Below, piece by piece: positions 6,923 to 42,957 of a DNA stretch of 64,000 bases; position 1 is the stretch's first letter; every line of letters starts with the position of its first letter. The DNA lies in IMG/VR virus record IMGVR_UViG_3300033148_006964, positions 1-64,000 of that record; one strand, given 5' to 3'. The position numbers and the translations under genes were made by a program. Origin of the DNA: a virus. The notes under the pieces were generated by a model. That model did not search any database. It saw only the letters and a list, made by a program, of their open reading frames with translations, and was not told the origin of the DNA.

Positions 6923-7498
6923 ATGAGTGTAATTAAAGAAGCAGCTGATAGACTCTTATCACGAGGTGAGATCAGTGAAGAGGAATATAAAGGAATAGAT
7001 TTTGATAACTTTGAGAAATTAGCTAAAGCTAAAGGAATAAAAAGGTTTTTTACCTATTTAAAAGCTCAAGCTAAACATCCTACAATGGTGAAAACCCCTA
7101 CTGATATTATGAAGAAAACATTTAAAACGCGTGGTGTTGATGCATTATTAGTTGGGGCTGGAATAGCTTTAGCGAAAGAATCTTTGATAGACCCAATAGT
7201 TGGCTCTGCTAAGATTCAAAGTTCTTACAGTCAACTTGCTAAAAAAACACCTCAACTCGCTGAAAAGGATAAAGATCAAATAAAAGATTATTTTAATGTT
7301 ATTAAAACCTTTTCACCAAAAGCAGCCTCTAATCCTCTTGTTGCCGGAGCCCTTGTAAATAAAATGATAGAGTTTGGTGGGGTGGATCATAAACTTGTTC
7401 AGGATATTGCTTCTATAGAAGCTGGTGCTCCTGGCTTGTTAGGAAAAGCCAGGGAGAACATTATTAAAAGTGTTGTTGGTGCAGCAGCAGCGGTTTAA
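6923..7498 (+). CDS. Putative head-associated protein
   Basis: 191 aa with GGGG RBS, KEAA/EKLA motifs and one hydrophobic segment. Confidence 0.55.
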   Translation: MSVIKEAADRLLSRGEISEEEYKGIDFDNFEKLAKAKGIKRFFTYLKAQAKHPTMVKTPTDIMKKTFKTRGVDALLVGAGIALAKESLIDPIVGSAKIQSSYSQLAKKTPQLAEKDKDQIKDYFNVIKTFSPKAASNPLVAGALVNKMIEFGGVDHKLVQDIASIEAGAPGLLGKARENIIKSVVGAAAAV

Positions 7499-7836: not shown

Positions 7837-8433
7837 ATGAATGATCAGATTTTAGAACGGATTTATGAAGAAGCTTTTGAAGATGAAATTCAAAAAATAG
7901 CCGCAAGCGAAAAGGGTCCATATGGATATCTTGGTAGTTCTTTAAAGTCAACGGTACCATATACTATAGGTGGTGAATTTGCCGGTGGTGGCATAGGGGC
8001 TGGTATTGGTGCTGGCGTAGGTGCTTTAGGCGCACTTCTTGTTAAAAAAAGTCCTAAAGCAGGCGCTGCAGCTGGAGCCTTAGCTGGTGGTTATGCTGGC
8101 GCACTTGGTGGAGGTCTTACTGGTGCAGCTAAAGGTTATAAAAAGTTTATTAAAAAAGAAACAGGTAAAGATGTATCTGGTGCTGGAGCTTTAGGTAAGT
8201 CGTATTTACATCTAGGCGGTAAAGGCCTTCTTGGTGCAGCAGCCGGTACTGGTGTAGGCGCTGGTGTAGGTGCTGGTGTGGGTGCTCTTGCTGCATTATT
8301 AGCTAAAAAGAGTCCGAAATCAGGCGCTGCAATTGGGTCTTTAATTGGGGGTGGAACCGGTTATGGTGGGGGAGCTCTTCACGGCACCGCTCTTGGTTCA
8401 AAGTCTTTAGTTAAATCGTATCAAAAGAAATAA
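7837..8433 (+). CDS. Glycine-zipper protein with internal tandem duplication
   Basis: Start ATG 7837 after AAGGAG. The unit GAG(I/V)GAGVGAL.ALL.KKSPK.GAA.G.L.GG occurs twice. Confidence 0.6.
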   Translation: MNDQILERIYEEAFEDEIQKIAASEKGPYGYLGSSLKSTVPYTIGGEFAGGGIGAGIGAGVGALGALLVKKSPKAGAAAGALAGGYAGALGGGLTGAAKGYKKFIKKETGKDVSGAGALGKSYLHLGGKGLLGAAAGTGVGAGVGAGVGALAALLAKKSPKSGAAIGSLIGGGTGYGGGALHGTALGSKSLVKSYQKK

Positions 8434-8442
8434 AGGATTAAC

Positions 8443-10344
8443 ATGATTAAATATGTTGAATTCGATGCCTTTGATGAATATGGACAACATATAATTCCGG
8501 TAGATGCAGTTTGTTCTATGAATAAAACCGCATCTACTGGATATTCTCCTGAATTAATGAAGGTCATTCTTGCGTTAAAACGCAGGGATGATCGTTATTA
8601 TGTTGTAGTTAATGCTTTAGGTTCGTCTGAAGTGTGGGGATCTAATAAAAACGGTGATGGGTTTCCTGAAGTAGGTTTAAAACATAAATCCCTTCGTACT
8701 GATATGGGAACTACTGATGATTATGGATATAAGACATTTGAATATTATGCAAAACTATTTAAACATCATGTAAATAAAGACCCTAAACGTAGCTTTGGAG
8801 AAGTTCTTTTTGCTCATTGGAATTCAGTTCTTCATAGAGTTGAGCTTATAGTAGCAATTAATACTGCAACTGGTAAAGATATTATAAAAGCTCTTGAAGC
8901 AAATGAACAGGTTGGGGTGTCGATGGGAGCTAAAGTACGCTATGATCGCTGTAGTATTTGTGGAAATAAAGCTAAGACAAGGACTCAATATTGTAAACAT
9001 CTTAAAAATTATATGGGTAGAATTGTTTCGAAAGAAAAGGCTGCTCAATGGTCTTTAGAATTAGGTAAGACCATACTTCCAGGATCTCAAGTTTTTGCTT
9101 ATAATGATCATCCAAGATTTTTTGATATATCAAAAGTTTATGTTGGTGCTGATAGAACAGCTTTTATTCTTGGTAAAGCCGCTTCTAACGGGATTGTAAT
9201 AGCATCTGTTGATATGGCAGAAGCTTATGGAATGACCGATGAAGTTTTTGATAAGATAGCTGAAGTGGGAAAAGAAGGTGCAATTAATAAAATTATAGGT
9301 GGTCCTTCAACAAATTCAAGTATAGATGGAAAAGTTATTCCTACCAGTAAGACAATCGCATTAAAAAAAGCTATAGATGAAAATGTTAAAAAAACAATAT
9401 CAGAAGAACCTGTTATTCCTTCAAGTTTTATTAATTCAATAACTGAACCAAAGACTATTCCTTTAAGTCATATTGTTTCAACTTTATTTGGACTTGGTAT
9501 TCATCCTAAGCCAACTGAGTTTCAAAGAATAGTACTTGTTAGTAATGGTCAAAAATCTTTAGCAGATGAACTTGATAAAGATAATTTAGTATTTGATTAT
9601 AAAGATGATAAAGTAAAACCTCAAGAATTAGATATATCAAATAATAATTTCAACGATATGCTTGGAAGGCTTTTAATTCCATTTCTAAAATCTCGAAGTG
9701 CTATGCCTAATTTTCTTGAACCAAGAATTAATGCGGTTATGATAAAGACAAGTGAAGCTAAATGGTTAGATCCTGTTGAAGATCCTGATAAAGGTGAATC
9801 TAAGATAACGCCTATAGTAGCTTTGGCTGGGGTTGCGGCTTTATACGCAACTCTTAAAGCAAAGGCGGCAGGGTATGGCCCGAAACAATTTGCAGAAATA
9901 TGGACTAAAAAACCATGGTTACGAATATTAATCGGTGGTTCTATTATAAATAAGATTCTGGAACAAACTAATGCAGCTGATGTTAACGATCCTTTATTAA
10001 GACCGGCAAGTGATTATGCAGATATATTACAAGATACTAATTTTTCAGGCCATATAACAAAACAAGGGTCAGAAGAATTAGATAAGACGGCGAAGTTTAA
10101 GCCTTCTGCTTTTGCTTCAGCTATGGGTAGGGGAGCTATAGCTGGAACTGTTCTTTTTCCGAGTGCGTATATAATTAATTCATATAATCAGAGATCATTA
10201 TATAATAAAGGTAAACCTCTTTTTCCTGGTGCAGGTTTGTCTCCAAAGACTATGGCAATTGGAGGCGGCGTCGCAACGGTAGCAGGAAGTGGTATATTAA
10301 GTAAAGGATTATCACTTGCTAAAAAGGTTGTTAAAATAAAGTAA
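8443..10344 (+). CDS. Prohead (capsid maturation) serine protease with long C-terminal extension
   Basis: LFKHH..., VSMGA catalytic-Ser-like motif followed by CSICG..YCKH Zn insert, FFDISKV..GAD. Located upstream of scaffold and capsid genes. Confidence 0.75.
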   Translation: MIKYVEFDAFDEYGQHIIPVDAVCSMNKTASTGYSPELMKVILALKRRDDRYYVVVNALGSSEVWGSNKNGDGFPEVGLKHKSLRTDMGTTDDYGYKTFEYYAKLFKHHVNKDPKRSFGEVLFAHWNSVLHRVELIVAINTATGKDIIKALEANEQVGVSMGAKVRYDRCSICGNKAKTRTQYCKHLKNYMGRIVSKEKAAQWSLELGKTILPGSQVFAYNDHPRFFDISKVYVGADRTAFILGKAASNGIVIASVDMAEAYGMTDEVFDKIAEVGKEGAINKIIGGPSTNSSIDGKVIPTSKTIALKKAIDENVKKTISEEPVIPSSFINSITEPKTIPLSHIVSTLFGLGIHPKPTEFQRIVLVSNGQKSLADELDKDNLVFDYKDDKVKPQELDISNNNFNDMLGRLLIPFLKSRSAMPNFLEPRINAVMIKTSEAKWLDPVEDPDKGESKITPIVALAGVAALYATLKAKAAGYGPKQFAEIWTKKPWLRILIGGSIINKILEQTNAADVNDPLLRPASDYADILQDTNFSGHITKQGSEELDKTAKFKPSAFASAMGRGAIAGTVLFPSAYIINSYNQRSLYNKGKPLFPGAGLSPKTMAIGGGVATVAGSGILSKGLSLAKKVVKIK

Positions 10345-35939: not shown

Positions 35940-37165
35940 TTATTAAATAATACTTGATATTTTAATTTCCTTATATTATATTATTCACTGTATGAATATT
36001 ATAACTTATAATGTAAAAATTCAGGGGAAATATGAAGATTCTCTTATTAAGACATTAAGTCTTCAAAGAGATTTAGTTAATTTTTGCTCTAAGCTTCATT
36101 TTGGTGCTAAAAAAAATTCTATTGTTGACCTTCATAATAAAGCATATAAAAATGCCAGATTAAAATACCCAGATGCTTTTAGCCAACTTGTAATTCGAGC
36201 TGAACAGGAAACATTAGGATCTTATCGCACGGCAAAATCAAATAAACATAACCTTAAACAACCTATTAATAAGCATAACTTATCATGTAGACTTGATAAA
36301 AGGGCTTATTCCAAGTTTACAAAACAGTCAATAAGAATATCAACTATCGATGGTAGAAAAGAGTTTGATCTTAAATTATATCCAAAAATAGACAATTTAT
36401 TTGATAGATATACTACAGCTGATCCTCTTGTGTTTTGTAAAAATGATAAGTTATGGTTGTCCGTTAGTTTTAACATACCAGAACAGGTCATTGCAGAAAA
36501 TAAACTTGCCGTTGGTGTAGATCTTGGGAAGCGTAATTTAGCTGTAACATCTGATGGTAAATTAATCTCTGGAAGAGAATTTAATAAACACAAGCGTAGA
36601 ATTCGTTATAATAAAAGAATGTTGCAAAGCGTAGGTTCTAAATCTTCAAAACATAAACTCAGAAAAATAAGAAGAAAAGAATATAATTTTTCAAAGAATT
36701 ATACGCATCATGTTGCTAATGAAATATTAGATACAGGTGCTAATATTATTGTATTAGAAGATTTAACAAAAATCAAAAAGAAAAAAAATAAATATCAAAA
36801 TAAAAATAACATTTCTCAAGTTCCGTTTTATTTGCTTCGTTCTATATTGGAATATAAGGCACCTCTTTTAAATAAGAAGGTAACGGTTATAAATCCAAAG
36901 AATACAAGTAAAAATGATTATAGGGGTATTAAGCCTGGTATAAGAAAAGGTGGAGAATATAAAACCAGTGATGGTTTAATTTTTCACGCAGATCTTAATG
37001 CCGCAAATAATATAGCCTTAAAATCAAAACACCCTTCTCTACTTGTTGATCCAATTAATTCGTTTAGAAGGCAGGGTGCGGTCAAACACCCAATAGTAGA
37101 CTCTCAAATTAGCATTGCTAATGGAGAGGTCTACAAGCCCACGGCTTTAGCTGTTGGCGTTTGAC
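35940..37165 (+). mobile_element. IS200/IS605-family tnpA-less element 2
   Basis: Right-end hairpin AAGCCCACGGCTTTAGCTGTTGGCGTTTGAC at 37135-37165. The left end is approximate. Confidence 0.65.
35992..37164 (+). CDS. tnpB: RNA-guided endonuclease TnpB lacking Zn-finger cysteines
   Basis: GVDLG, VLEDL and HADLNAANNI RuvC motifs. SKNDYRG...YKTSDG stands where CxxC pairs normally sit. Confidence 0.85.
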   Translation: MNIITYNVKIQGKYEDSLIKTLSLQRDLVNFCSKLHFGAKKNSIVDLHNKAYKNARLKYPDAFSQLVIRAEQETLGSYRTAKSNKHNLKQPINKHNLSCRLDKRAYSKFTKQSIRISTIDGRKEFDLKLYPKIDNLFDRYTTADPLVFCKNDKLWLSVSFNIPEQVIAENKLAVGVDLGKRNLAVTSDGKLISGREFNKHKRRIRYNKRMLQSVGSKSSKHKLRKIRRKEYNFSKNYTHHVANEILDTGANIIVLEDLTKIKKKKNKYQNKNNISQVPFYLLRSILEYKAPLLNKKVTVINPKNTSKNDYRGIKPGIRKGGEYKTSDGLIFHADLNAANNIALKSKHPSLLVDPINSFRRQGAVKHPIVDSQISIANGEVYKPTALAVGV

Positions 37166-37754
37166 CCCACCACATTAAAGATATAACGTTCCATAAAGCT
37201 TGATATAAATGAAGGAATCCAGATTCAGAGTCATATATATATTTAGTACGCATACATTTAAAATGTCTGTAAAATGCCCCATGATATCTTTTAGGATCGA
37301 CTAACATCCAATTATCATCATCATATTTAATAGCGCCATGAGCGTATACATCAGCAAGAATATTAAGAACATCAGGATCAATAAGATCCCATCTTTCTAT
37401 GTCTGATGAATATGATAATAGATCTTCAGTTATATAATCTTCTTTTTTTAATAAGAAACATATAAGAAAAGCAATAACAGCAAGATTTTCACAGTTAGTT
37501 CCTGGAATAAATCTATGTCCTGTGCTCCAATTACGCATTAATGACATTATAGTGTTATATATTATTGCTTCTTTTTTTTTATCTAAAAGATTAAGTTTGT
37601 GTAACGATCCACCAGGGAGAAATTCATTTGCAGCAAGTACTACCCTGCTTATCTGAGCCATCGGAAGAAGATCCCATCTGGCTTTTTTGCTATCAAACTT
37701 TATGCCTTGTTTACTAAAATCTGCGTTTTTATCAGTACTTTGTTTATTGTTCAT
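37131..37754 (-). CDS. DUF5664-like (dATP/dGTP diphosphohydrolase N-terminal) domain protein, tandem copies
   Basis: GIKFDSKKARWDLLP, then a second RWDLI...GAIKY..DNW...RH...DSESG..HL..A.WN. Confidence 0.7.
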   Translation of the reverse strand: MNNKQSTDKNADFSKQGIKFDSKKARWDLLPMAQISRVVLAANEFLPGGSLHKLNLLDKKKEAIIYNTIMSLMRNWSTGHRFIPGTNCENLAVIAFLICFLLKKEDYITEDLLSYSSDIERWDLIDPDVLNILADVYAHGAIKYDDDNWMLVDPKRYHGAFYRHFKCMRTKYIYDSESGFLHLYQALWNVISLMWWGQTPTAKAVGL

Positions 37755-37776
37755 AAAAAAATCCTTGTTTTAAATT

Positions 37777-37808
37777 AAAAAAAGAGGGCATGCATTACAC
37801 ACGCCCTC
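37777..37808 (-). terminator. Rho-independent terminator closing the non-coding region
   Basis: Minus strand GAGGGCG/TGCCCTC stem followed by T7. Confidence 0.8.
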
Positions 37809-38380
37809 CCACACTCTAACTAAAGATCGATCGCGGTTTTCTTTGCGCAAACTGACGTTAGCGTAGAAGACTGCAGCTCTTCAGATTAAGATCTCAAGAA
37901 GCTTTCGAATCCGCGATCCCTTATTTATAAGGGATATTAGTTTCGTGGCGAAACACCACGCTTTAAACTTAGAGTATATTTTTTTGTTCTCTTACTTAGA
38001 TGGATATGTTTCGCCACCCAGAATAGGTAATACTAGGAGAAGATCCCGCGTAATAACCGTGGGACGTTACGAAATTCCTGGAGGCGACCGGTTCCGCCGT
38101 GTCATCCATCTGTTGTAGAAACATACTCTGAGCCTGAATTTATTAAGTATTCGAATTTATTCGAAAATACGTGTAAATGTGCTGTTTAAACAGCGAAGCT
38201 TTAAACAGACAGGCGATAAGAGTATGCATTAAAGATATGACGAGACGTCATACCATTGCAATTTCTAAGAGAAAAATTTATTATCTTTTTTTTAGCTGTT
38301 CTCAAACTAGATTGAGCGAGTTTGTAACCTTAACTTAGTCACTGAAGATCCAGGATATACATCGACGGCGCCGCCCATAG
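37777..38380 (-). ncRNA. Putative large structured ncRNA of unknown class
   Basis: No ORF, elevated GC, at least eight complementary segment pairs including long-range ones, G-U wobbles mostly favouring the minus strand, terminator at the 3' end. Confidence 0.6.
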
Positions 38381-38416
38381 AATAAATATTATATTATATT
38401 ATACAACAAAACTAGC

Positions 38417-38580
38417 ATTCACTAAAAGGGTCTGTCAGCGACTTAGCAGATATGGTACATAGATGCTAATAAAGCGTTTGACAGAATTTTGCGCAAGCCC
38501 AAATTCAAAGAATTTGGATGTCTGAGCAAAATACTTTTAAGAGTGAATATAGAATACAGATGGTGAAACACCACCTATCT
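38417..38580. ncRNA. Putative small structured RNA or 5' domain of the large RNA
   Basis: Three-way junction (38417-28/38534-48, 38431-37/38479-85, 38487-92/38526-31 with inner 38499-38517 hairpin) plus a hairpin at 38561-73. Confidence 0.5.
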
Positions 38581-38622
38581 AATGACTTTGAGAAAACACA
38601 CTATTTTAATATAAAACCTTCT

Positions 38623-38636
38623 ATTATACTTATTAC
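38623..38636 (-). promoter_or_regulatory. Putative promoter, GTAATAAS-TAnnAT class
   Basis: Minus strand GTAATAAGTATAAT just downstream of the RNR stop and pointing into the non-coding region. Confidence 0.55.
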
Positions 38637-38658
38637 ACAAAGTTTATAAAAAATAACA

Positions 38659-41600
38659 TTATGAAGCAGGTAATTGGCATGAATCTCCATCACAATACTT
38701 TTCACCAATAGCTTGATTTATAAAATTTGTATAATTAGGTTTTTTCAAATTTTTTGACATTTTTATATAAGTAGCTTCATCTATTTCTTCATACGGAGCT
38801 TGTTTATATCCGTGATCATTGTATGGAAGCATACTTACTGATTTTAATCTAGAGTCAAATATTGATAAAGCATTTGCTATATCTCTGACTTCATCTTTCT
38901 TAAATGTAACTGTTATAGAAACTTGATTATCACACCAGTATTTTTGGTAATCTGAAGCGTTTAAAAATTGTTCCCACATTGTTACTTCTTTTTTCCCTTT
39001 AATAAAATATTTGGTTTTTACTGGAAATTCTACAACCATCATAGTATCCTCCTTGCCATAGCAAGGAACAACATTATATCCAGCTTCTACCATAATATTT
39101 ACTAAAGGCGAACTCTTAGCGACTATAATTCTTCTTATATAATATTCTGAATGAGCATAATGAATACCTGGCGATACTCCTGGCAATAACGATACTGAGC
39201 CAGAAGGTTTTACTGAGGTAATCTTAATGCTTCTTGGGATACATAACCAATCAGAATATATACCATCGAGTTCTCTTAAATATTTATAACCTTGTTGAGA
39301 CCATTCTAATACTGTTTGCCTACCGTGCCTGATAAAAGCATCGATAATTCCAGATTGCGAAGTACCAATCCTTCTATTACGAAGTAATACTGCGTTTGTA
39401 GGTTCCCAGTGAGTTGGTAACAATGTTACAGTCTTTGCATATAAATATGCATATTTAAGTGTTAGTCGATACTCATCATATGTCGCATGCAAAGAAGGGA
39501 AAGTTTCAACTAAATTGCATAATTCATATGATTCTAAAGTTTGTTCACTTTGATGTAAGTATATACCAGTACACGAGTTACAAGAATCATCTAACAATTT
39601 ACTTGAGATAACTCCAAGAGTATGGTGGCTATCTACAGTTCCGTTATATACATCTTCATGTCCATCAAATTCTACAGAAACAACTTTATGGTTAGCTATA
39701 GCGGCTAATTCTTTAAGTTGTTTATACGATGTTAGTGCAAATTTATTACCCGTAGACCCAGTTTGTCTTATTCTATAAGGAACACTATTTTGCTTGCACC
39801 CTTCCATCCATTCTAATTTAAAAGGATCTCTTTTTAATTTAAATTTAAGATCATTGTAAATTTTTATTTGAGATGCAAGTTTAGCCTTTTGTGTTAATTC
39901 AAATTTATCTTTTTGAGCTTGTTTTCTTTTTTTTGATCCATGCCCTGTATTAAGAAAAATTAAATTACATTTTTGACTACAAAAAGCGGTATTTCTAAGA
40001 CGATACGGAACATCATATTCTACTTTGCATTGATCGCACGTTCTAGTTATTATACATTTACCAACTTTATTATATTTAGCTTTTAATCCAGTAGATATGG
40101 CTTTTTCAAAGTATTCTTTTTGTACGCCTTTATGCCATTTTTTTAAACTTTCTCCTTTAAACTGAGATCTCCATTCTTCAGAATCCCAATATTTTTTCAT
40201 TATAATTTTTTGTTTTTCCATCCTATCTATAGTCTTATTGCCTATTTTTCTTTTAGTATCTTTAGAATGTTGTTTTCCATACATAGGATTTGATTCACCA
40301 GAACTATGAAATGAAATGTGTTCACTTTGAGGAATTGCCTCTAAGTTATTAATTAAATCATTTTTTTTATTTTTATCAATATGATGAATATGAACCTTCT
40401 TAGGTATTTTTTTATTAGAATAAGCTTCAAATATTCTTCTTGATTGAATATCTAAAATCCAATTCTCTTTACCAGGAGTGGTTTCTACATATCGTCGATC
40501 TCTTTTTACATAAGCTCTAAATGGCATTAAAGAATCTCCTGCTTGTAGCTCATAACATAACGCTATGTACCCGTCGCGCCTAATAAATTTATGGTCTTCT
40601 GTAACCCTAACACAACTTCCATCATCTAAAGTCACTTTATATACTGGTACCTTTTCACCAGTTTTATGAAATTGTCTCATATATGATATTGTTGATTTTC
40701 CATTTTTATCAAGACTATAAACAGGAACATCATTATCTTCATCAACTAGTTGTTTTATTGGTACAGCGTTTCTACCATCAGCTACGGCAATTAGTGTCTC
40801 ACCAACTACACAGCAGGGGTTACATCCGACTGCCTTATAGTCAAGATCATTTTGTGGATCTACCATACGGCTATATTTTTTTGCATTATCAAGCCAAAAT
40901 AAACCTGGTTCACCATTAACAGCTATTTTTTTAGCGATATCCGTATAGTCTTGTCCAACCTCTGCAAAAACACTATTATTTGAAGCCCATCTCCAGTTTT
41001 TTAATTCTTTAGGAAATAGCTTATAATCCTTCATATTAATAAACTGTTCATCGTTAGGATCGCCAAGTGCAATTAATGCAGTTCTTCTAACGTTTCCAGA
41101 TACAACACATTTTCCTATCATAGCGCAAATGTCAACTATAATAGTTGATGTTATTTTTTGGTCTATATGTGTTATTAACATTTTAGTTAACATATTTACC
41201 ATTTGTTTTAAAGGTCCTGAACCACTAGCCGTACCTCCAAAGCCTTTAATTGGAGCTCCTTCAGGACGTATTATTGAATAATCAAATTCAGGTATTTCAG
41301 ATCCAGTAAAAAAACCATTGAGTACAATACTCATGGTTTCAACCCAACCTTCTCTTGTGTCTGGAACTATAGCCGCCGTTTTAACAAAAGCTGGTTGTTT
41401 AATAATTATCTCACCAGCACCTTTAGTGTCAAATCCTACACCAACACCTAACATTGACATATCCATAAGAAAACGAAAAGGCCCAACAGGGTCTAATGCA
41501 AGATTTTTACTTGATACATACGAGCAATTTCCTGTAAGAATATTATCAGCTAAAGCAAATTTACCTTCATTTTTTACTGTAACACAAAATACTTCTTCAT

Positions 41601-42957
41601 ATCTATTTGTAGGAGTTACAGAATTTACAGTCCAATAGTTTTCTCTTTCTGTAGGCATTTTATCTAAAAAAGATTTTTTATGCTTATCCCTTAAAAAGAA
41701 ATCACTAGTTAAAAATTTTGATATAAAGACAACACTATGTATAGTATGTTCTCTATTAGTAAGATTTGATATTCGTTTACAACTACGTATTCTATTAGAT
41801 CCAATACCAAGTTTATAACAAACATCTCTTACAAATTTTAACGATTTTTTATTGCTACTATGTAATATTGAAGATCCGTTTGATACAGATCCGTCAGCAG
41901 CAAAATATCCTATTAGCCATCCTAATAAATAAGAACTATTTTCATGAATATCAGGTAATCTTTTATAATAATTTGGTAGATTTTTTATTATAGTTTTTGT
42001 CTTTTTCTCTTCAATATCTTTTTTATTGAAATAATTAGACAATTTCATTTTTTCTCCAAATAATTCTAATCGATTTGAATGGCGTTCTGTTTCAACTGAT
42101 GTTCCATCTCCGTAACATATTCCATGCATAATTCCTATTGAAGATGGTTTTAAGTTTGAAGAATTTAAACAGTTTTGACCAAAGACACATTGTAATTTAT
42201 GTTTATTTGGTCTAAGGTCTTTTGTTAAAAATTCTACATATTTAAAATTTCTATATTTAACTCTTCTATCTATACAAAACCACCTATGGTCTTTTGTTGT
42301 AAAGATTGTTTTTTTTACACCACATCTAGTTAAAATTAATTCATATAACTGTTGTTTTCCAAAACTATTAATTGGAGCTTTTACCCACTTACCATTATTT
42401 GTAAGGATGGTTTGTTGGGTGTCTTTACAATCTCCTAGTTTTTTTACACCTTCGCTAGTTATAAACTCAGTATTATATTCAAAACAATTATTTAAACATG
42501 CTGCTCCTACTTTATTAACGTGCTCAGTGTTTGACATCCATATGCCTCTACCTGGAGGAAGGAACTTCATATTAAATATTAAATCATACATGATCTTTGC
42601 TGATGCTTGAGCTTTACCGTTATACCATGGAACTCTATGAGAAAAACAATGTCGTTTTTGTATTGTAAAGCAACCTTCCACAACACGTCTAACAGTTTCA
42701 AACCATTTTTCTTTTTTTGTTTTTCCATATTCATCTTCATATGTTCTTGAGTAAGTCCTCATATAAGTAAATTCACCCAGAGGCCCCCAAGGTACTTTTT
42801 TCTTGGCATAACCTTGCACAAATTCTTCACTTAAATAAAAAGGTATAAATCTTGATGAGGTTTCTTCTTGTACAAAAAAACCACTATTTGACTTTAAAAC
42901 TGAACCATGCAAGTTGTCAGCCAAAATTTCCTCCTCAGTTTTTGATATTATATCCAT
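38659..42957 (-). CDS. nrdJ: Class II (B12-dependent) ribonucleoside-triphosphate reductase with two inteins
   Basis: TYMRTYSR, FLPPGRG, LNNC, VVSGNVRR, GEPG, NPC/SEQ.LE..ELCNLVE, VKPSGSVS, C-terminal YCDGDSC. About 691 aa after intein removal. Confidence 0.95.
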   Translation of the reverse strand: MDIISKTEEEILADNLHGSVLKSNSGFFVQEETSSRFIPFYLSEEFVQGYAKKKVPWGPLGEFTYMRTYSRTYEDEYGKTKKEKWFETVRRVVEGCFTIQKRHCFSHRVPWYNGKAQASAKIMYDLIFNMKFLPPGRGIWMSNTEHVNKVGAACLNNCFEYNTEFITSEGVKKLGDCKDTQQTILTNNGKWVKAPINSFGKQQLYELILTRCGVKKTIFTTKDHRWFCIDRRVKYRNFKYVEFLTKDLRPNKHKLQCVFGQNCLNSSNLKPSSIGIMHGICYGDGTSVETERHSNRLELFGEKMKLSNYFNKKDIEEKKTKTIIKNLPNYYKRLPDIHENSSYLLGWLIGYFAADGSVSNGSSILHSSNKKSLKFVRDVCYKLGIGSNRIRSCKRISNLTNREHTIHSVVFISKFLTSDFFLRDKHKKSFLDKMPTERENYWTVNSVTPTNRYEEVFCVTVKNEGKFALADNILTGNCSYVSSKNLALDPVGPFRFLMDMSMLGVGVGFDTKGAGEIIIKQPAFVKTAAIVPDTREGWVETMSIVLNGFFTGSEIPEFDYSIIRPEGAPIKGFGGTASGSGPLKQMVNMLTKMLITHIDQKITSTIIVDICAMIGKCVVSGNVRRTALIALGDPNDEQFINMKDYKLFPKELKNWRWASNNSVFAEVGQDYTDIAKKIAVNGEPGLFWLDNAKKYSRMVDPQNDLDYKAVGCNPCCVVGETLIAVADGRNAVPIKQLVDEDNDVPVYSLDKNGKSTISYMRQFHKTGEKVPVYKVTLDDGSCVRVTEDHKFIRRDGYIALCYELQAGDSLMPFRAYVKRDRRYVETTPGKENWILDIQSRRIFEAYSNKKIPKKVHIHHIDKNKKNDLINNLEAIPQSEHISFHSSGESNPMYGKQHSKDTKRKIGNKTIDRMEKQKIIMKKYWDSEEWRSQFKGESLKKWHKGVQKEYFEKAISTGLKAKYNKVGKCIITRTCDQCKVEYDVPYRLRNTAFCSQKCNLIFLNTGHGSKKRKQAQKDKFELTQKAKLASQIKIYNDLKFKLKRDPFKLEWMEGCKQNSVPYRIRQTGSTGNKFALTSYKQLKELAAIANHKVVSVEFDGHEDVYNGTVDSHHTLGVISSKLLDDSCNSCTGIYLHQSEQTLESYELCNLVETFPSLHATYDEYRLTLKYAYLYAKTVTLLPTHWEPTNAVLLRNRRIGTSQSGIIDAFIRHGRQTVLEWSQQGYKYLRELDGIYSDWLCIPRSIKITSVKPSGSVSLLPGVSPGIHYAHSEYYIRRIIVAKSSPLVNIMVEAGYNVVPCYGKEDTMMVVEFPVKTKYFIKGKKEVTMWEQFLNASDYQKYWCDNQVSITVTFKKDEVRDIANALSIFDSRLKSVSMLPYNDHGYKQAPYEEIDEATYIKMSKNLKKPNYTNFINQAIGEKYCDGDSCQLPAS
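39550..40812 (-). mobile_element. Intein 2 (421 aa, HNH endonuclease, C-terminal Gln)
   Basis: Starts CVVGETLI, block F VYNGTVDSHH, ends IYLHQ followed by +1 Ser. Contains IHHIDKNKKND..NNL (HNH), NPMYGKQHS (NUMOD3-like) and CDQC..CSQKC. Confidence 0.9.
41527..42486 (-). mobile_element. Intein 1 (320 aa, LAGLIDADG endonuclease)
   Basis: Starts CFEYNTEF, ends ILTGN followed by +1 Cys. HGICYGDG and GYFAADG motifs. Confidence 0.9.

Follow-up and report, generated by a model that had tools for sequence, protein, structure and literature searches.

The window analysed here comprises positions 1-64,000 of a 180,926-bp IMG/VR phage genome (IMGVR_UViG_3300033148_006964) with a completeness of 100% (CheckV) and a GC content of 31.7%. 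The large terminase of the nearest cultured phages is only ~26% identical. Between nrdJ and a dGTP_diPhyd_N/DUF5664 gene, both on the minus strand, lies a gap of 904 nt (37755-38658), which ranks as the second-longest stretch without an ORF of at least 70 aa in the whole genome. The locus is part of an island of six minus-strand genes (37.1-45.7 kb), which interrupts the structural module on the plus strand. Its neighbours are:

38659-42957, minus strand: nrdJ, class II ribonucleotide reductase, upstream of the gap
37131-37754, minus strand: dGTP_diPhyd_N/DUF5664 gene, downstream of the gap
35992-37164, convergent with the DUF5664 gene: tnpB gene

As an earlier, sequence-only reading of this DNA had stated, the gap is free of ORFs and comparatively rich in GC (36.2% vs 31.7% for the genome, with 42-44% at 37800-38200). 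No ORF with an RBS was present. Translation in six frames with stops read through gave no Pfam or PHROG match, and tblastn of the gap with the genes that follow nrdJ in relatives detected no remnant; a pseudogene remnant was therefore rejected. Likewise, no genes are called in the homologous gaps of related phages.

Homologous loci in related phages

Relatives were reached by a protein search with the C-extein of nrdJ in which longer proteins were allowed. This gave two relatives at 85-86% identity, and their contigs, L051 and L052, are syntenic with the window. On L051, nrdJ is followed by a gap of 536 nt, a full-length DUF5664 gene (278 aa) and a convergent tail-tube gene (277 aa); on L052, 741 nt of non-coding DNA reach from nrdJ to the contig end. 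L052 and the window share 74% nucleotide identity over the first module of the RNA (D-I, described below), and of the flanking proteins DUF5664 is 60% and the tube protein 82% identical to that of the window. A search with the tube protein led to L057, L060, L065 and L066. The gaps of L057 and L060 are 95-98% identical to that of L051. L065 and L066 represent more distant phages, with a gap of 962 or 1080 nt between the thioredoxin and tube genes. All six contigs align with the window over the promoter, three box-plus-hairpin units, the closing strands and the terminator. Weaker homologues were found on L053, L054 and L056. In L053 the module copies are located apart from nrdJ/thioredoxin, beyond an inserted tnpB gene. 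In the 174-kb contig L054 a tmRNA stands directly after nrdJ, and a module copy lies ~3 kb downstream of it. This tmRNA (7012-7411) has an unusually long tag peptide of 28 residues, and genes for tRNA-Gln and tRNA-Pro (8069-8142 and 8831-8906) lie between the tmRNA and the module copy.

The tnpB element of the window (35992-37185) truncates the DUF5664 gene, whose product (207 aa) aligns to the 278-aa protein of L051 up to residue 196 only. A tnpB gene also adjoins the RNA locus in the L053 lineage, hence insertions are recurrent at this locus. The nrdJ product of the window (1432 aa) harbors two inteins (LAGLIDADG and HNH), and its closest relatives (85-86% identical; 1099 aa) harbor the HNH intein only. 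Among the nrdJ homologues that the protein search returned at 58-65% identity, many come under the label of Asgard archaeal MAGs; for one tail-tube homologue the label is that of a Thermoproteota MAG. The archaeal labels may reflect binning or gene transfer and the hosts may be bacterial, which is favoured by the phage-borne tmRNA of L054 and by the hairpin-type terminators. A relative of tnpB as host marker was not found in species genomes.

Predicted promoter, terminator and transcript

The sequences that flank the conserved part of the gap suggest a transcription unit on the minus strand:

38620-38658, minus strand: promoter motif TGTTAT, 12-13 nt, GTGKWATAAS, TATWAT; begins at the nrdJ stop codon
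37775-37810, minus strand: intrinsic terminator, 13-pair stem and U7
37775-38618, minus strand: predicted whole RNA of ~844 nt, from promoter to terminator, with collinear homologues

The promoter motif contains sigma-70-like hexamers (TTTATA-16-TATAAT) and is conserved in L051, L052, L065 and L066; transcription is predicted to start at ~38618. The same motif recurs at four more minus-strand sites of the genome, and at three of these an RBS and ATG follow immediately. The fourth (genome 177944-177770, minus strand) is followed by ~170 nt of non-coding DNA and a strong terminator, and represents a separate small-RNA candidate without an Rfam match. At the other end, the U-tailed terminator that had been proposed to close the minus strand was found at 37810-37775. 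Its position is the same in L051, L057, L065 and L066; its stem differs in sequence and contains two compensatory pairs. We infer that transcription proceeds from the motif promoter to this terminator. The RNA would thereby extend beyond position 38380, where the sequence-only reading had placed its boundary, to ~38618. The minus strand is also indicated by the G-U pairs of the recurrent hairpins, which lie on this strand, with U-G at the apex pair in 10 of the 15 copies.

Modular architecture

The predicted RNA consists of three tandem modules and not of a single global fold. Its elements are, in 5' to 3' order of the RNA:

38299-38594, minus strand: module D-I, closing helix UUCUCAAA (38594-38587) with UUUGAGAA (38306-38299)
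38556-38578, minus strand: conserved hairpin A of D-I, apex UG-UUU-CA
38412-38552, minus strand: three-way junction of D-I
37987-38273, minus strand: module D-II, closing helix UUCUCUUA (38273-38266) with UAAGAGAA (37994-37987)
38234-38254, minus strand: D-II hairpin, a diverged copy, apex CG-UCU-CG
38121-38227, minus strand: three-way junction of D-II
37810-37978, minus strand: module D-III, closing helix UAUACUCUAA (37978-37969) with UUAGAGUGUG (37819-37810)
37944-37960, minus strand: conserved hairpin B of D-III, apex UG-UUU-CG, included in model R1

In general, a module opens with a box CUC-WW-AG, whose partner strand, CU-WW-GAG, lies 170-300 nt downstream and closes the module, and a hairpin 5'-UGNYG-YWU-CRNCA-3' is located 5-13 nt after the box. 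In D-I and D-II the hairpin is followed by a tight three-way junction and then by variable hairpins; D-III has further hairpins, and the junction model matches it only in part. The same plan was obtained from independent folds of each lineage. Across the family the modules are arranged in tandem and number two to four. The L051 lineage lacks D-I and has two modules, so that the promoter leads straight into D-II.

The closing helix of D-I is the same in independent folds of four lineages, and L066 has a matched extra A and U. Pair probabilities in the D-I junction range from 0.59 to 0.98 (at least 0.93 in the arms, 0.59-0.76 in the basal stem). All four sequences retain the 8-bp closing helix of D-II, in which one pair changes from A-U to U-A, and L051 and L052 independently fold D-II in the same way. 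Its hairpin differs by four compensatory pairs from those of L051 and L052, in which the apex stays GUG-YUU-CGC. The stem of the D-II junction (GCAUA.UCYUA/UAGRRUAUGU) is conserved; its two arms are lineage-specific in sequence and the same in topology. In D-III a 9-bp closing helix is present in five sequences with two covarying pairs, and the 7-bp hairpin B has compensatory changes at three pairs across five sequences.

All complementary segments listed in the sequence-only reading are present, including the G-U pairs on the minus strand and one stem with its wobble on the plus strand (~38044-64); the overall fold that had been drawn from them has to be revised. The proposed closing stem 37817-24/38334-41 is not conserved, and 37810-37819 pairs with 37969-37978 instead. 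The pair 37971-79/38121-29 gives way to two separate conserved helices. The 11-bp pair 37945-55/38007-17, interpreted as a pseudoknot or switch, is not conserved: in L051 and L052 the GAAACA strand has its partner upstream, in a UGUUUC strand. We also rejected an 'anti-hairpin' as a property shared by the hairpin copies, because it is present at hairpin B only and is not conserved.

Covariation and paralogy of the modules

Covariation among the homologues, which had been named as a check on the proposed RNA, was found throughout: compensatory changes keep the helices. The 15 box-plus-hairpin units have all 105 cells of the 7-bp stem paired, and 27 of these cells are double changes. None of 500 shuffles reached this double-change count, and slid controls were 28-65% paired. 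Hairpin A and the D-I junction were compared between the window and L052 (~75% identity). Among the 54 pairs, 11 are compensatory and four show compatible single changes, and no pair is broken; slid controls gave 0-2 compensatory pairs. In an alignment of eight module copies, which is model-fitted and thus leans towards the model, 95.7% of the cells are paired and 42 of the 54 pairs are compensatory, whereas slid controls were 34-47% paired with 8-12 compensatory pairs. Compensatory changes also occur in the closing helices of D-II and D-III, in the D-II hairpin, in hairpin B and in the terminator.

A model of hairpin A and the D-I junction (R2) matched L056 with 48 bits, L054 with 47 bits and L053 with 23 bits; L065 scored 23 bits with filters off. 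The same model matched D-II of L051, L052 and the window with 17-21 bits (window 38112-38259, 20.6 bits) and, in addition, part of D-III of the window. Since a model built on D-I thus recognizes D-II and part of D-III, the modules are regarded as paralogues.

Comparison with known RNA families and other elements

The sequence-only reading could assign the RNA to no known class, and our searches support this. Rfam 15 at gathering score gave no match in the gap, one tRNA only in the rest of the genome, and only the L054 tmRNA and three tRNAs in the seven homologous loci. At E up to 10 the gap gave matches at chance level, the best one being L20_leader with 19.7 bits vs a cut-off of 58.7. GOLLD, ROOL, OLE, raiA, HEARO and the other Rfam 15 families were rejected, as no covariance-model match came near the gathering score. 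A tmRNA was rejected because ARAGORN and RF00023 found none in the window; as a positive control, the L054 tmRNA was detected by both Rfam (137 bits) and ARAGORN. No tRNA was found in the gap. A group I or II intron was rejected in view of the lack of Rfam matches to the core models; the nrdJ C-extein aligns with its relatives through to its end and DUF5664 aligns from residue 2. A riboswitch, T-box or attenuator leader was rejected, as no Rfam match was obtained, L065 and L066 have no downstream gene and the alternative pairing is not conserved.

Non-RNA readings and the RNA of the neighbouring transposon were considered as well. A TnpB omega RNA (reRNA) was rejected because tnpB, which is encoded on the opposite strand, ends at 37164, at a distance of 590 nt; L051, L065 and L066 have the RNA, and gene calling in the retrieved stretches of these contigs gave no tnpB. 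Hairpins of an IS end were rejected, since the motif is absent from the tnpB ends. The gap contains no iterons, and a replication origin was therefore rejected. Cumulative GC skew, profiled locally over 35-41 kb, has its peak near 37 kb, at the point where the gene strands switch convergently; over the whole genome its extremes fall at 0 and 88 kb. With a predicted transcript of more than 500 nt, no coding capacity and covarying junctions, the locus would belong to the descriptive class of large ornate structured ncRNAs.

Distribution of the family

The family appears to be rare and confined to a small clade of phages. The known lineages number about five to eight, several being close to identical, and come from uncultivated phages in a few JGI, ENA and Logan assemblies; the three longest contigs measure ~150-180 kb. 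Among the source samples are JGI 3300031578 and 3300033145 and ENA ERZ27316532, ERZ27256808 and ERZ27227317. Blastn of the gap against 50,697 phage records gave no match. No relatives of the DUF5664 protein were found in IMG/VR and the protein collection, although a relative with 60% identity exists on L051. More distant nrdJ relatives at 54% identity (L003-L005) lack a gap after nrdJ, and their records gave no blastn or nhmmer match. Pattern scans for the 'switch' pair returned nothing in IMG/VR and, in JGI metagenomes, five chance matches inside TetR-like genes of GC-rich bacteria. A scan for the promoter motif yielded one unrelated 37.7-kb phage without an RNA homologue, and a block scan with TACTCTAAG..TGGTGTTTCGCCA gave no match. 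A looser box-plus-hairpin scan of IMG/VR returned 63 loci; models R1 and R2 confirmed the L065 phage only. The match to L112 from the box-plus-hairpin scan was rejected because it lies within a coding region.

Folding energy

Comparison of the fold with dinucleotide shuffles had been suggested as a check, and the locus folds better than the shuffles on both strands. For 37765-38400, z was -5.5 on the minus and -3.5 on the plus strand. The whole 844 nt reach an MFE of -242 vs -190 +/- 7.8 for the shuffles on the minus strand (z = -6.7; 28 G-U pairs), and z = -8.5 with 18 G-U pairs on the plus strand. Other intergenic gaps of the phage fold equally well or better (several with z of -4 to -6; genome 104049-104719 with z = -17.8). 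Folding energy alone therefore decides neither the locus nor the strand. The minus-strand structured RNA of 600-850 nt that the first reading had put forward is supported by homologues and covariation besides folding energy, with a predicted length of ~845 nt.

Discussion

The locus between nrdJ and the DUF5664 gene is non-coding, conserved in position, maintains a secondary structure by covariation and is a modular repeat. It represents an undescribed, modular family with two to four tandem paralogous modules and no match to known families. Probably, the gap is a stand-alone gene for a structured ncRNA of ~845 nt, which would be expressed from the minus strand between a phage promoter and an intrinsic terminator.

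It is tempting to speculate how such an RNA might act. Acting in trans, it may serve as a platform or decoy with multiple binding sites, on which two to four copies of the hairpin would be presented to one RNA-binding protein of the phage or the host. Like other large ornate phage RNAs, it might also self-assemble. Among these modes of action the multi-site platform or decoy is the most likely one, and we put it forward tentatively. A model for such a decoy is provided by the CsrB/RsmZ sponge RNAs, which likewise carry many copies of one short hairpin on a single ncRNA. However, the sponge RNAs present a GGA loop and not a UGNYG-YWU-CRNCA hairpin, and here each hairpin is part of a large module (170-300 nt) that includes a covarying three-way junction. 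The nut sites of phage lambda (boxA and boxB) resemble the units described here in that a short conserved box precedes a small conserved hairpin by ~10 nt, the first copy being located ~20-60 nt after the promoter. In contrast to nut, the box forms one side of a long-range helix, as indicated by covariation and a matched indel, and is not a free protein-binding box; besides, the unit occurs repeatedly within an RNA of 0.85 kb with a terminator at its end. A structured phage RNA directly after nrdJ also recalls tmRNA, and L054 holds a true tmRNA at this place; yet Rfam and ARAGORN find nothing of this kind in the window, and L054 carries both the tmRNA and a module of the new RNA.

Alternatively, the RNA could form a self-assembling RNA-only particle, a homo-oligomer like ROOL, GOLLD and OLE, in which the modules are building blocks and not protein sites. 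GOLLD and ROOL are described as forming homo-oligomers by cryo-EM (PMC12286853). The new RNA is similar to them in its length of 0.5-1 kb, its many stems and multi-way junctions, and its organization as a separate phage gene with its own promoter and terminator (here predicted). GOLLD and ROOL genes are frequently found near tRNA genes, and the module copy of L054 is likewise close to a tmRNA and two tRNA genes. On the other hand, the new RNA gives no covariance-model match at gathering score, nor one beyond chance level at E up to 10, repeats a single module type two to four times in tandem, and adjoins nrdJ/thioredoxin and tail genes in a handful of metagenomic contigs. Moreover, no conserved palindromic kissing loop was seen: GGCGCC at 38368-38373 is absent from L051 and differs in L052. 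We consider a self-assembling particle rather unlikely.

The RNA might instead be a cis-acting 3' end-piece of the nrdJ/thioredoxin operon that insulates it from the convergent tail genes and blocks 3' exonucleases, with no function in trans. In line with this, the position of the RNA is constant: it forms the 3' end of the minus-strand island, follows nrdJ/thioredoxin directly and faces the tail-tube gene. No terminator separates it from nrdJ, and read-through nrdJ transcripts would also include the RNA. A mere end-piece would, however, leave unexplained why the promoter motif is conserved at the 5' edge of the RNA (L051, L052, L065, L066) and why every module keeps a sequence-specific hairpin, and 540-1080 nt of covarying junctions go far beyond the need of a terminator or stabiliser. 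These points make an end-piece unlikely.

A long 5' leader or attenuator that governs read-through into the DUF5664 gene (dNTP diphosphohydrolase-like) is still less plausible. The terminator of the window ends 20 nt before the RBS of this gene (ATG at 37754), for which no recognisable promoter of its own was seen, and the arrangement is the same in L051 and L057. On these grounds the RNA may have some role in cis on the DUF5664 gene in the window. Judging from the gene order in related phages, it is not the leader of this gene, since L065 and L066 keep the RNA and have only the convergent tail-tube gene downstream. Furthermore, the L053 module copies lie apart from nrdJ/thioredoxin, past the inserted tnpB, the sole candidate for an anti-terminator or switch pairing is not conserved, and no riboswitch or T-box was matched.

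Finally, non-functional DNA from a decayed gene or mobile element, with inverted repeats that happen to fold, is very improbable: tnpB elements adjoin the locus in two lineages and other gaps of the phage also fold well, but no protein remnant was detected, ~74% nucleotide identity is kept where the flanking proteins are 60-86% identical, and every helix is preserved through compensatory changes.

Going beyond the stand-alone gene for a modular RNA, which remains our preferred reading, we see a serious possibility, if short of an even chance, that there is a new class of large phage RNAs, of which this locus would be the first member. Its architecture, a tandem array with varying numbers of one ~150-300-nt module (closing helix, invariant hairpin and three-way junction), would be unlike that of GOLLD, ROOL or OLE, and the RNA would function in trans during infection, either by self-assembly or by sequestering an RNA-binding protein of host or phage at several sites. 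Large highly structured ncRNA classes are rare. To our knowledge, nearly every class studied has yielded new biochemistry (ribozymes, ribonucleoprotein machines and, lately, RNA-only cages). The present family is a case of a large RNA built by repeating one module, and its two-, three- and four-module versions offer a natural series for structural and functional dissection. An in vitro transcript and a 17-nt hairpin bait are usable without host culture, and the fixed place beside class II ribonucleotide reductase/thioredoxin and tail genes provides a starting point for the function.

The hairpin motif elsewhere in the genome

Outside the modular RNA, the genome of the window contains further copies of the box-plus-hairpin unit, at genome 104252-104291 and 124024-124063, with weaker ones at 104490-104529 and 128014-128054. 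In the L065 phage the unit occurs only in the modular RNA. If the proposed class is real, solitary copies elsewhere in the genome would link several transcripts into one regulatory system.

The strongly folding gap at genome 104049-104719 (L041:1549-2219), located outside the window, measures 671 nt with a GC content of 37% and lies between two minus-strand genes. Its minus-strand fold (z = -17.8) comprises very long near-perfect hairpins. It contains three UG-UUU-CR hairpins, two of which are matched by the box-plus-hairpin model; neither an Rfam match nor a three-way-junction match was obtained. Solitary copies of the hairpin motif are present on the minus strand at genome 178188-178170, 128035-128015, 124047-124021 and 119233-119213. 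The motif occurs ten times on the minus and twice on the plus strand, compared with 0-3 occurrences for control loops, and most copies are located in gene-free gaps. Since their stems are rich in G-U pairs, these copies probably act at the RNA level.
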